A DNA stretch of 64,000 nucleotides from Paraspadella gotoi (taxonomy: Eukaryota > Animalia > Chaetognatha). The stretch covers positions 10,763,832-10,827,831 of the forward strand of contig CM119264.1 of the NCBI GenBank assembly GCA_051294375.1, given 5' to 3'. A program made the translations under genes and the position numbers. This document shows, one piece after another, positions 41,288 through 58,877 of this stretch. The notes below the pieces were generated by a model. The model made no database searches. It had not been told where the DNA came from and saw only the letters and a program-made list of their open reading frames with translations. Every line of letters begins with the position of its first letter. The stretch's first letter is position 1.

Positions 41288-41711
41288 TTAATTTTCGGTA
41301 AATTTTGTTTCTTCCTCGAATGACGTCGGCGAGAGGCCGGCGTCCGCGGGCTTCGGAGGATCGTCTGACTTCTCCTCAAGAAAACTTGTTTCCGCGTTCC
41401 ACGGCGCCTCATGGGCCTCATTAGTCGACGACGGCGATGGAGAAGAGCCGACGATCGTCCCACCTACCGGCGCCAAGGCTTCGTAACCGGGCGGCGGCCG
41501 GGTCAGGACTGAATATTCCAAATTCGATAGAAACTCGAACGGAGATCGCCCTTCCAAATTTCTCGTCACCTGGTTGAGTGCTGACTATGGGCGTTCCAAT
41601 CGATGATTGGTTCTTCATCAGGTCGTATCGTCGCACGCAAGCGCAGACGACGACGACGATGCTAATGGCGAGGACGCAAGAAATGATGGGGATTATCACA
41701 TACAGTGCCAT
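41288..41711 (-). CDS. PY-cluster gene 1: single-pass membrane protein with PPGY motif (one frameshift near 41570)
   Basis: ATG at 41711: MALYVIIPIISCVLAISIVVVVCACVRR (signal-anchor TM, CxC, RR). A 1-nt shift joins it to the frame VTRNLEG...TRPPPGYEALAP...KFTEN*. About 140 aa. Confidence 0.7.
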
Positions 41712-42542
41712 ACTATAGTAGTCTTAAATTAAAGGTTATAAGAATAAACTGAAAGCGATGTTAGTAGTGAAATTTATTTAATTAAGTTACGAAGAAGTAT
41801 TCATCCCAAGTTTCGAAAATCTCGGTTCTTCTCTCCTGAGGTTGAGCGGGAAGAAATAGCAGGGTCAATTGAAGTATATTATTCTTTCTTTTTTTTTTGT
41901 AAAGTTCTTTCTTAACCTTTTTTAATATTTTTTTGAATAATAACGATCATTTTTTGAAAATCTTTTCAAATAAAATGCAAATAAATGTATGAAAATTTGC
42001 AAAATTATTTGTAATTTTTATTAAATGACGTTGCTCAATAAACAATATGGTATAGGAGTAAAAATCAAGTATGTATTATTAGGATACTTGTTCTTGGATA
42101 ATTCCTTGATTCGAACGTAAAAAAAAAAGTCAAATTTACCCAATCATTGACAAAACGAAAACGTTTCAGTATCACAGATACAATTGTCATGCGAGATATT
42201 TAGTCATATATGGCGGTGGATGTTTTGATGTATCTGTTAGCGACTTACCAGGTTTTTTTTTTCCAAAATAGATAAAACTAGTTTTAAGCGAGATCATTTC
42301 ATTTTACATGGTTACGTTTCAATTTGAAATTGTTGCCTCGCCAAGTCAAACAGTAATATTTTTTTAGTTAAAAAGAGGAAACAACAAGTATTTGTTCTTT
42401 TTAACAGAATCATGGATGTAAAAACGGAATCTTAAAAATACTTCGAATTCGAAAGTGGTTTAATAATCTTTGTTAGTTATAGCATAGTACGTAGTATTTC
42501 TACACCCTAATCAAGCAACAATAAAACGCAATGGAATTTAGG

Positions 42543-43409
42543 TCAATATCGCACTCCTGCCTCTTCCTTCGGAATTTTAATGGCATCTTCGTAAGATGGC
42601 GGGAGCGCAGGGGAGAGGGCGCCGGGCGCGTAAGCCGGCGGCGCCGGATAAAACGGCGCCGCATTGGAATCGGCTGGGGGAACGAATCCGATGGGCGGGG
42701 GAGGAGGATAGGGGCCAAAGTCGGGCCCACCTACCGGGGCCATCCCACCAAATCCCGGAGGAGGCGGAGTGGTGGTGGCTCGCGAAGGTGGGTTGGGAGC
42801 CCGGCGGTCCCGGACGGCATCGCCCAACCGTTGGCGCCTTTAAAAAATTAGAATGCGTTAATCATGACTATCATCATCGTCATCGTAATCGTAAATTGTA
42901 TTTTCAGGTCAGTATCGTTTCCCTTACCTCCAGCGACGACCGACCTGTGACTGATTCATTCGCGCCATCGCCTGTTNNNNNNNNNNNNNNNNNNNNNNNN
43001 NCGGGGCCATCCCGCACCAAAAATCCGGAGGAGGCCGGATGGTGGTCGGGGCGAAGGTGGGTTGGTGAGCCTCGGCCGTCCCGGACGGCCATCGCCCAAC
43101 CGTTGGCGGCCTTTATAAAAATTAGAATGCGTTAATCATGAATATCATCATCGTCATCGTAATCGTAAATGTTATTCTCAGGGTGCAGTATCGTTTCCTT
43201 ACCTCCAGCGACGACGACCTGTGACTCTGATTCATTCGCCCGGCCCATCGACCTTGTTTGGCAGTTATGACAATATGCCTGAATGAGCGGACAACCGATG
43301 ATGATGACGAAGATGGCAAAAGACCAGAAGGTCGCGGCCAGATGGCTGGGAACACGTCCATGCTCGAACGCGATTGAGTAAATCACTAAAGCAATGCTGA
43401 ATCGTACAT
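42543..43409 (-). CDS. PY-cluster gene 2: two-exon single-pass membrane protein with a Pro-rich tail (PPAY, PPSYEDA); error-laden and split by an overfilled gap
   Basis: Exon 1 ~43409-43203 encodes hydrophobic LAATFWSFAIFVIIIGC..YCHNC. Intron GTAAGG..TTTATAAAG at 43202-43111 (duplicated at 42927-42838). Exon 2 42837-42543 encodes PPPPGFGG..PYPPPPPIGFVPP..PPAYAP..LPPSYEDAIKIP. Confidence 0.65.
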
Positions 43410-43835
43410 CAAGCTCGGCCGTGCGATTGATAGGTGAATTTATAATATTTTACATTGTCATAGTACAGGGATTGAAACCTGGGTTTCAACAAAATCATTA
43501 CAATGAACACGACGGCTGCAAATCTTAAAGATTCGCATAATTTTTTTTCACGACACAAAAAACAAAAAAACAATAAGGTAGTTGAGATATCGGCATCCGT
43601 TTTTCTAAAGAAATAAGTCATGGTTAAGAAAACAAAAGACCAAAAAAGAAAAAAAAATATACACCAGAAACCAAAACACAGAGAAGACAGCTAAACGTGC
43701 AGTTTTGAGCTGAAAAAAATATTAACAATGGAGATTTCGCCCGCCTGGATGATATGAAAAATGTACTGATACGGCCATGATGCCACGTCAAGACCGGAAG
43801 AGCCTTCGATGTCGCCAATCGCCACGCCCCCCGCG

Positions 43836-44066
43836 TCAATAATCTGCGTACATGGCGGGGTCGATGGCGTACTTGGCCTCCTCGTACTCGCGCAGCTTCA
43901 TCCCGTCCTTGATGTGGGCGTAGTTGGCTGAGAGGCAGGTCAGAAAGTGGACGAGTCCGAGAACGATCGCCGCCGCGCCCCCTGTCGCCAAGCAGAAGTA
44001 GACAAAGGAGCCTCTCGCCTCCTCGCAGAATCGGGCGAATTCGCTGCCGCACAATCGAGACGCCAC
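43836..44066 (-). CDS. M6: M6-like exon 5 (end of loop 2, TM4, cytoplasmic tail)
   Basis: CTCTCCAG|GTGGCG acceptor; VASRLCGSEFARFCEEARGSFVYFCLATGGAAAIVLGLVHFLTCLSANYAHIKDGMKLREYEEAKYAIDPAMYADY*. Confidence 0.9.
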   Translation of the reverse strand: MASRLCGSEFARFCEEARGSFVYFCLATGGAAAIVLGLVHFLTCLSANYAHIKDGMKLREYEEAKYAIDPAMYADY

Positions 44067-57207: not shown

Positions 57208-57607
57208 TGTCCTGACTCCGCATGACTGGATATTCGCCGAGGAATTTCTATGAGGCGTCAGAGGAGTTTGAAACGCGTCATTATAAATATTGTTTAATTA
57301 TTGTTTTTACTAGCTTGGATTAAAGATGTTGTTATTGTTGTTGAAAGTCCATATATATCGCCTTGTGGTGAGAGTTTTATTAATACTGATTTTTCTTTGA
57401 ATATTTTTCTATAAGACAAAAAACATCGTTAAAAGTAATTTAACTAAATTCAAATGCGATGAATAAATATTTTAGCATGTAAACAAGCGCAACAGTTTAT
57501 ATAAGTTTATATAAGTAGTATCAACTATCACAATTTCCTCTTGAAGTAGTTCCCTCGCAATTTAATATACATTATATTGTAGGAAAAGAGATTCAGGCCC
57601 TTGCTAA

Positions 57608-57772
57608 GTGTTTAACATACGACAGCGATGTCTTTAATATATAATTGGCAATGACTGTGAATGATTTTTAACTATTGCAATGTCGCAATATTTAGAAATA
57701 TGGGGTAAGAATCAAAAATCACCGATTAGAGTTTGAGCAGTGAGCTAAGTGCAAGTAAAATATCACAAATTC
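57608..57772 (+). repeat. Segment duplicated at 63836-64000 (runs off the window end)
   Basis: GTGTTTAACATACGACAGCGATGTC...AAAATATCACAAATT is near-identical at both positions. Confidence 0.92.
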
Positions 57773-58016
57773 TGATTCGGCTTGTTATAAACAATGTGAA
57801 TAAGTTAGATAATGTAAATCAATGCTTGTGTAAAGCAAACAAACAAAGTAGTTTTCCAAATACCAGGCGTGTCATTCATTTTTTTTAGGTTAGTAAACAA
57901 TCACCTATAAAGAAAAGTTTTATATGAGATGTTTAATATTTTATCCCGTTTTGCAAGAGATAAGGGTATTAAACTTTACAGTTTTAAATTTTTTATTTTA
58001 ATCTTAATTTTAATTT

Positions 58017-58877
58017 TTATCCCACGATTTTGTCATCGGCCGCCGTCGACGCGGATGCCAAACTTTCATAGGGCGGCGGGGCTTCCCCAGTGGCAGGTAA
58101 CGCCTCCCCTGGAATCGGAATCACGAAGACCCCTGGATTAACGGCCCCCGCCGCGCAGGCCGCCTCGTATGAAGGCGGAGACAACACCGGCCAATGGTTT
58201 CCAATCCCTTCGGACGCGACGGGCAGCTGGAATTGATGGGTGTTGGGCTGCTGAAAGAGCTGTGGAACGGGCTGCGCGTTGGGCTGGACTATCGTCTGCG
58301 GAAATGATTCGACGACGGGCTGCACGAACGATCTCCTCCTGGCGACAGACCCGCCCGCCGCGCCGCGCCGTGCCGCACCGCGCCGTGCCGCACCGCGACG
58401 CCTTCGTCGTTCGTACTTCAAATAGCAGGCGGTGCTGAGAGAGACGGCGACGAGAATGAGGACGATGATGACGGTGAGAACGACGGGACTCACTCCGAGA
58501 TTGTCGCTCCAATGTTGACCTTGAAGTTCTCCCGGAGACCGAGTCGTCGTGGAAAATGGATTCCACGGCTTCGTCGACGTCGCCCACCAAGGAGTGTCAG
58601 TCGAGGGGGACGGCCTTGGAGACCAAGAGGCCCATGGGGACCAGGTGGAATGCGGGAACATCGACGAAGAAGCCAGAAGCTCTTGGTAGGCGTTGTTGAC
58701 GGCGACTTCGCCATAGACATTCTCCAATGTCTTGAGTTGGCTCACTTTGCATCGCGGCTCGTAGTAGGCGCCGTTGACGGAGCAGTTGGTCAAGACGCGC
58801 CAAATGTCGAGGGCGGACAAAGGCGAAAGGCTCCAAGGGAATTGAGGGGAATCGGAAGTGAGAGTCGGAAGTTGCAT
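58017..58877 (-). CDS. PY-cluster gene 8: single-pass membrane protein with ~130-aa ectodomain, 286 aa from the first ATG
   Basis: Ectodomain with an NCS sequon, two Cys, WSPWASW and a Thr/Ser/Pro stalk; TM VVLTVIIVLILVAVSLSTAC; ERRRRR(GAARR)n; SPPSYEAA..GVFVIPI..EAPPPYESL. The true start may lie in an upstream exon. Confidence 0.88.
   Translation of the reverse strand: MQLPTLTSDSPQFPWSLSPLSALDIWRVLTNCSVNGAYYEPRCKVSQLKTLENVYGEVAVNNAYQELLASSSMFPHSTWSPWASWSPRPSPSTDTPWWATSTKPWNPFSTTTRSPGELQGQHWSDNLGVSPVVLTVIIVLILVAVSLSTACYLKYERRRRRGAARRGAARRGAAGGSVARRRSFVQPVVESFPQTIVQPNAQPVPQLFQQPNTHQFQLPVASEGIGNHWPVLSPPSYEAACAAGAVNPGVFVIPIPGEALPATGEAPPPYESLASASTAADDKIVG

Follow-up and report, generated by a model that had tools for sequence, protein, structure and literature searches.

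Operons resolved by spliced-leader (SL) trans-splicing can lack intercistronic DNA altogether. In Ciona intestinalis, whose operons are mostly dicistronic, the upstream mRNA is polyadenylated on the G of the AG that serves as acceptor for the next gene, mostly without an AATAAA (PMC1488885), and SL1-type operons of Caenorhabditis elegans are cited in the same paper as likewise devoid of intercistronic DNA. Among chaetognaths, poly(A) site and acceptor are 3 bases apart in the Spadella RP S14-PCNA operon (PMC2481426), and PMC12460157 describes Paraspadella gotoi operons, defined by gaps of <250 bp, the longest of which holds nine genes (ribosomal and proteasome genes included) and which are enriched in housekeeping and depleted in signaling functions. 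Single-pass membrane proteins with PPxY (PY) motifs are also well described, PY-dependent Nedd4 adaptor function having been demonstrated for Commissureless (Comm; PMC12101832) and WBP1L (PMC6991692). Here we describe an array of eight minus-strand genes for PY-tailed single-pass proteins, labeled G1 to G8 with G1 most upstream, in a 64,000-nucleotide stretch of the P. gotoi genome (GCA_051294375.1, contig CM119264.1, positions 10,763,832 to 10,827,831; hereafter the window). We hold with moderate confidence that the array is a gapless SL operon whose products are predicted to act as adaptors of Nedd4-family (WW-HECT) ligases. The mRNAs of G1-G6 probably derive from a single long precursor, and the unit comprises at least six genes, likely 7 to 9 with an embedded M6 gene, G7, and G8 included.

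Of 11 public sequencing runs listed, 9 contained the stretch, and six were examined (X1, X3, X6, X7, X8, and X9). Runs X3, X6, X7, and X8 were RNA-like, with spliced joints or contig ends at exon boundaries and, in X3 and X8, leaders and tails; X1 and X9 were DNA-like, their contigs crossing the junctions without leader or tail, and the X1 contigs were unbroken over 53100-56116 and 56156-59725. Expression of the genes, which the initial annotation proposed to check, is borne out by spliced, leader-bearing, and tailed contigs of the RNA-like runs, including mature-mRNA-like contigs with an overhang at both ends for G3 (X8 record 12) and G4 (X3 record 4). Identical non-genomic 5′ letters in X3 and X8 were joined directly after an AG at 57408, 53927, and 53058, and they correspond to the 3′ 21-25 nt of chaetognath SL2.0 as given in Table 3 of PMC2481426, which by itself marks the window as chaetognath DNA. 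Leader addition is seen as letters at G2, G5, and G6 and as a leader-sized overhang at G1, G3, and G4; at the start of the G4 contigs stand 11-13 extra letters and 3 mismatches, the pattern expected from the leader's end. Allowing up to 3 mismatches, the window contains no copy of the leader, and a shared cis-spliced first exon was rejected on this absence and on the identity to a published SL. The two acceptors of G6 (53053 and 53058) lie 5 nt apart and carry two leader forms in two runs, the form at 53053 (X8) differing at 3 of 23 letters from SL4.2 of the same published table.

At all five junctions among G1-G6, the upstream 3′ end lay no more than 5 nt from the leader acceptor of the following gene (Table 1). 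Poly(A) on the acceptor was read as letters at the ends of G2 and G5 and as overhangs of 15-19 letters at the ends of G1, G3, and G4. Neither AATAAA nor ATTAAA was present within 40 nt of the internal 3′ ends (0/6), and the chance of an end landing in a given 6-nt window of untranslated region (UTR) is about 0.01-0.02 per junction. What had been taken for AT-rich spacers between the genes are in fact transcribed UTRs that reach the next gene's acceptor. The AG that receives the leader is also the point at which the preceding mRNA stops, so the genes likely form one gapless operon. The arrangement shares with Ciona operons the upstream poly(A) on the downstream AG, the lack of AATAAA at internal ends, and the use of an ordinary leader, and differs in having at least five consecutive junctions in a unit of tandem paralogues (PMC1488885). 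With the chaetognath operons, namely Spadella RP S14-PCNA and the P. gotoi set, it has in common the leader, the occurrence of several leader forms per unit, and the near-zero gap (PMC2481426; PMC12460157), whereas it holds fast-evolving paralogous membrane proteins in contrast to the P. gotoi operons as published.

Matching ends could also arise if these were separate trans-spliced genes, each with a promoter in its neighbor's 3′ UTR, and read-through transcripts were cut by trans-splicing. Contig depth varies several-fold from gene to gene (in X3, 137 to about 1000), a spread that would suit separate promoters even though contig depth cannot rank genes, and G1 too apparently takes the leader. 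Against this, an upstream mRNA that ends on an acceptor implies transcription across that acceptor, an argument made in PMC1488885, and none of six internal ends has an AATAAA nearby; we consider separate promoters distinctly unlikely. In the single operon that we prefer, one promoter upstream of 59219 would drive a precursor, trans-splicing at each AG would cut it, and the upstream piece would be tailed there; alternatively, tailing and trans-splicing might be mutually exclusive on each molecule, as discussed for Ciona. G1-G5 would then have arisen by tandem duplication of a self-contained acceptor-open reading frame (ORF)-UTR unit of 0.9-1.8 kb that needs no new promoter. Upstream of G1, at 59092-59620, lies a GC-rich stretch with a TATA-like element, where contig depth in the DNA-like run X9 was 94 compared with about 20 on the genes, depth being weak evidence; the stretch could be an operon promoter mark or a repeat.

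The cluster is interrupted by a multi-exon gene of the myelin proteolipid (PLP)/M6 family, which lies between G6 and G7. Its last exon, like members of that family, scores above the cut-off of Pfam PF01275 (48 bits vs 23.8, E 1.7e-12); the gene differs from the family in its long Pro-rich N-terminal exon and in its place within a PY-gene operon. GT-AG joints of this gene were found in contigs of three runs (51254/51535, 44392/50434, and 44064/44210). An X3 contig of the gene starts at 52057, next to an AG that is probably its leader acceptor and that would abut the 3′ end of G6, which contig extent places near 52058, followed by some 15 extra letters. The transcription unit would continue through M6, G7, and G8. 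One spliced contig spans the last exon of G7 together with G8, although one contig does not prove one molecule, and contig extent suggests that the G8 mRNA stops in the vicinity of 40653, which is 16 nt below an AATAAA; G8 is probably the last cistron. The initial annotation included neither this M6 gene nor the probable gapless operon with its trans-splicing. Inside an M6 intron, at about 47800-49970, sits GC-rich, heavily frameshifted, multi-copy sequence that by eye resembles a decayed long-terminal-repeat (LTR) retrotransposon pol region.

Table 1. Genes of the array and junctions among G1-G6, in window coordinates (TM, transmembrane segment)
Feature	Position	Strand	Description
G1 leader acceptor	59219..59221	-	AG, exon start 59219; X8 contig with 27 unaligned letters (overhang size only)
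G1, 286 aa	58017..58877	-	126-aa N-terminal part; TM about 127-152; GVF motif of tail flanked by two PPxY
G1/G2 junction	57404..57410	-	Leader letters at 57408 (X3, X8); G1 contig end 57404 plus 15 extra letters
G2, 112 aa	56869..57207	-	N-terminal TM, 3 PPxY
G2/G3 junction	56183..56186	-	G2 poly(A) on AG, T13 loose end at 56183 (X3); 24-letter overhang on G3, 56184 (X8)
G3, 177 aa	55468..56001	-	N-terminal TM, 3 PPxY
G3/G4 junction	54932..54934	-	G3 contigs end 54933 plus 17 extra letters, G4 contigs begin with 11-13 (X3 records 4-5, X8 records 11-12; overhang size only)
G4, 196 aa	54205..54795	-	N-terminal TM, 3 PPxY
G4/G5 junction	53927..53929	-	Leader at 53927 (X3 24 nt, X8 25 nt); G4 contig end 53928 plus 19 extra letters
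G5, 158 aa	53359..53835	-	N-terminal TM, 2 PPxY plus two degenerate PY-like repeats
G5/G6 junction	53053..53060	-	13-20 letter poly(A) at 53059/53060 (X8); leaders 53058 (X3), 53053 (X8)
G6, 232 aa	52344..53042	-	Trp-rich N-terminal part (7 WxxW), TM about 68-90, no GVF motif
PLP/M6-family gene	43836..51952	-	Multi-exon, Pro-rich N-terminus; between G6 and G7
G7	42543..43409	-	PY-tailed TM gene, one intron, last exon with 2 PPxY
G8, 120 aa	41288..41711	-	TM, 1 PPxY, 61-nt phase-1 intron 41569-41509

The eight co-oriented, PPxY-tailed single-pass genes themselves are real. Seven of the eight were checked in full and G7 by its last exon, its N-terminus and transmembrane (TM) segment being unreadable in one frame. 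The eight products (G7 by the last exon only) contain 18 PPxY motifs, compared with a mean of 0.94 and a maximum of 7 in 20,000 composition shuffles, and ten of these motifs have the form PPxY[DE]x-hydrophobic, for which 0.015 were expected; six-frame counts gave 18 PPxY in the 4,863 gene bases vs 7 across the remaining window. The claim that the genes are mostly single coding exons holds for G1-G6, which are intact single-exon ORFs whose boundaries an ORF check left as first proposed, but fails for G7 and G8, in both of which an apparent phase-1 intron lies ~20 residues past the TM segment. The change of reading frame within G8 is a GT-AG intron, and spliced contigs of X6 and X7 part from the window exactly at its boundary, 41570; a frameshifted G8 was dropped on these two observations.

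Each of the G1-G6 proteins has one hydrophobic segment (broad and weak in G5, Kyte-Doolittle 1.62), with 1-4 Cys inside it or directly behind, a net positive C-flank, and 2-3 PPxY. Ahead of the TM segment, the N-termini measure 4-9 residues in G2-G5 and 4 residues in G8; Cys is absent from this part in G2-G6, and G1 carries there 2 Cys, 2 WxxW motifs, and 1 N-glycosylation sequon. The tail of G6 consists of Pro/Tyr repeats with 2 PPxY followed by a Gly/Arg-rich end. A single-sequence structure model of G1 gave a mean predicted local distance difference test (pLDDT) score of 51, exceeding 90 for the TM helix only. The WxxW motifs fall in the predicted luminal parts of G1 (residues 79-85, two) and G6 (residues 15-64, seven), WxxW being the C-mannosylation consensus. 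Lys is scarce in the tails of G1-G8 (1-4 per 82-173 residues), which could limit self-ubiquitination or could merely be an effect of GC-rich codons.

The proposal of one expanded family survives for G1-G5, which are shown by sequence comparison to be diverged paralogues sharing a PY-GVF-PY tail. Their pairwise identity is 26-37%, yet the TM Cys, two PPxY, and the VF motif that separates these PPxY are invariant; all ten pairs aligned with z scores of 3.3-14, and three of the ten (G1-G3, G2-G5, and G4-G5) stayed above 6 with the PPxY masked. For G6, G7, and G8 the proposal is not borne out: their alignment with G1-G5 goes no further than TM and PY, and a G1-G5 profile run over the window did not recover them. 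The likeness of G6 to G1 is confined to the Trp-rich N-terminal part and the TM segment (z 5.5; 4.3 masked), and the tails of G7 and G8 align with each other (z 8.0; 2.9 with PY masked). In the G1-G5 tails, the first and second PY are separated by a conserved [GD]VF[VF][IV][PS] motif, which matched no testable motif class and may be an additional docking site.

Searches for relatives accord with the earlier suggestion of a lineage-specific array, in that no named homologue was found. Word-indexed searches returned no homologue at E 0.01 for the alignment of G2-G5 with the G1 tail, for G1, or for G6, and none of G1-G6 (0/6) is present as an exact sequence in the protein collection; for G7 and G8 the search was confined to Pfam. 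When 1.84 billion representatives were searched exhaustively with a profile, a single match emerged, the singleton P0001 (E 9.8e-5), whose sequence has a TM segment, a Cys, two PY, and no GVF motif and which is possibly a distant relative or a look-alike. Metagenome contigs, searched with the G2-G5 plus G1 tail alignment and with the M6 exon, gave pattern matches of which none was confirmed. In Pfam, no PY protein reached any family cut-off. Language-model look-alikes scoring 0.84-0.90 were TMEM52B, Comm (0.87), MLANA, BEAN1, MYCT1, VOPP1, and PRR7-like proteins; recognition by this method is low, the first-ranked family is probably wrong, and they serve as leads only. MLANA, TMEM52B, and BEAN1 belong to the single-pass PY-motif adaptors.

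Comparison with WBP-1/Shisa and Comm profiles, suggested by the initial annotation, gave no match at cut-off. The best score against the Shisa/WBP1/VOPP1/TMEM92/CYYR1 (STMC6) profile was that of G2 with PF11669 (12 bits vs a cut-off of 28.1, E 0.35). According to PMC5578492, STMC6 proteins begin with a signal sequence, followed by a luminal domain that has six Cys in the pattern C*C*CC*CC; G1-G6 have the trait of a single TM segment with Cys and cytoplasmic PY motifs and lack the Cys6 ectodomain, and membership was rejected. Commissureless was set aside on the absence of LPxY (cf. GLPSYDEAL) from G1-G6 and of a PF15957 match, PRRG1-4, which carry a Gla domain outside and LPxY followed by PPxY inside, on the absence of a Gla match and of LPxY in G1-G6 and on the short G2-G5 N-termini, and TMEM52, MLANA, BEAN1, and MYCT1 on the absence of a Pfam match at E up to 1.

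The lack of introns and homologues in G1-G6 would also fit cargo of a virus or transposon, encoding PPxY late-domain or Nedd4-hijacking proteins and using the host leader. Viral contigs, however, gave 4 pattern matches with 0 confirmed, the array is continuous with the intron-bearing host M6 gene and with G7 and G8, which also have introns, and DNA contig depth over G1-G8 (78-93, itself weak evidence) is like that of M6 exons and far under that of nearby repeats. We regard a mobile origin as very improbable.

A Nedd4/WW adaptor role of the PY proteins is likely by analogy, and it is predicted because their architecture matches that of Comm and WBP1L. They share with Comm, PRRG4, yeast Rcr1/2, PYT-1, and WBP1L one TM segment, juxtamembrane Cys and basic residues, several extended PY motifs in a disordered tail, and little other conservation; Comm1, PRRG1, and PRRG3 are likewise without a signal sequence (PMC5578492; PMC12101832). 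They differ from these single-pass PY adaptors in that G1-G6 lack LPxY, Gla, and Cys6 and match no profile at cut-off, in having the PY separated by a motif of the GVF[VF][IV]P type, and in the presence of at least five tandem operon copies. A signal-anchor topology with the N-terminus outside is suggested by the charge bias, together with the WxxW and N-glycosylation sequons in the N-termini of G1 and G6. The juxtamembrane Cys would be S-acylated, two or three spaced PY motifs would engage tandem WW domains, and overlapping YxxΦ signals would direct endocytic sorting. The divergent TM and N-terminal parts would pick membrane cargo for ubiquitination and delivery to endolysosomes.

Several points weigh against the operon and adaptor reading. 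Both ends were read as letters at one of the five junctions (G5/G6), the rest by letters or overhang size, and 18 of 63 loose ends were listed. The DNA past the G1 end is A-rich (14/20 A), unlike that after the other sites, and this 3′ end could be internal priming. The runs carry no RNA label on record, their RNA nature being deduced from spliced joints, leaders, and tails. The read evidence consists of assembled contigs rather than single molecules, the leader letters come from two runs of one study, and X6 and X7 seem to be one data set. The single promoter and polycistronic precursor are predictions, as are the G6/M6, M6/G7, and G7/G8 junctions. On the functional side, of 13 listed variants the 7 that fall in coding sequence were checked, 6 being noncoding, and the 5 in PY genes comprise 4 missense and 1 silent, none within a PY motif, a tally that neither shows nor excludes selection. 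In C. elegans PYT-1, moreover, the PY motifs are required, and loss of two WW-HECT ligases is without effect (bioRxiv 2025.08.13.670147); by this precedent the partner need not be Nedd4.

With the operon unchanged, the tails might instead be phosphotyrosine or sorting scaffolds, acting as SH2 ligands or adaptor-protein (AP) complex YxxΦ signals in the manner of palmitoylated transmembrane signaling adaptors, or might bind non-ligase WW partners such as Yorkie/YAP, Kibra, or MAGI. The ten PPxY[DE]x-hydrophobic motifs fall at the same time into the YxxΦ and SH2-ligand-like motif classes. PYT-1, which acts without an identified ligase, would be a precedent (bioRxiv 2025.08.13.670147). Yet in every one of G1-G5 both Pro are kept along with the Tyr, and a bare YxxΦ or SH2 site needs no Pro; the membrane PY proteins of the cited papers bind Nedd4-family ligases (PMC12101832; PMC6991692). 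Such roles seem to us unlikely, if the most plausible of the alternatives. That the ORFs are young or decaying and carried in the operon under little selection is a further alternative, compatible with the failure to find homologues, with the excess of missense variants, and with a G+C content at third codon positions (GC3) of 0.55-0.68 in the PY genes vs 0.75-0.81 in M6 exons. It sits poorly with the retention of TM, Cys, PY, and GVF columns at such low identity and with the absence of frameshift or stop variants among those listed for three runs, and we give it hardly any credence.

Gapless SL operons and single-pass PY adaptors are each known, and their combination was not found in the literature searched. 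That search found neither chaetognath PPxY proteins, nor PPxY in connection with TMEM52B, nor a gapless operon of PY genes, the spreadsheet of PMC12460157 lying outside that search; the terms PPxY, Nedd4, intercistronic, and polyadenyl are absent from the three PDF supplements of that paper, and the genes may be in its spreadsheet. The array offers at least five successive junctions at which to probe how a trans-splice acceptor becomes an mRNA 3′ end, a problem that the Ciona paper does not settle (PMC1488885), and provides a concrete case of how tandem duplication within a polycistronic unit could multiply chaetognath-specific genes. Its diverged paralogues belong to a putative regulatory class reported as depleted from chaetognath operons (PMC12460157). 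Going further, and in our estimate doubtfully, the gapless operon may be an expansion chassis for chaetognath-specific ligase adaptors, in which competition at the AG between tailing and leader addition selects the adaptor in step with M6. If so, the shared AG would set which adaptor, and hence which surface protein turnover, a cell uses, and each duplicated acceptor-ORF-UTR unit would be expressed without a promoter of its own.

Parts of the window show signs of assembly trouble. The sequence around G7 is noisy and gap-filled; it includes an N run and a false duplication, which is missing from DNA-like as well as RNA-like contigs. A noisy duplication (42735-42963 vs 43002-43239) covers part of the gene, another (44392-45154 vs 49995-50734) copies an M6 exon, and further ones occur at 1-1974, 20055-22431, and 29935-32291. 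Such duplications of 87-97% beside N gaps are typical of gap-filling errors. The G1 3′ UTR is copied at 99.4% (63836-64000 vs 57608-57771) up to the window end, beyond which a second G1 copy may follow; the X1 DNA contig, unbroken past 57608, favors an assembly duplicate.

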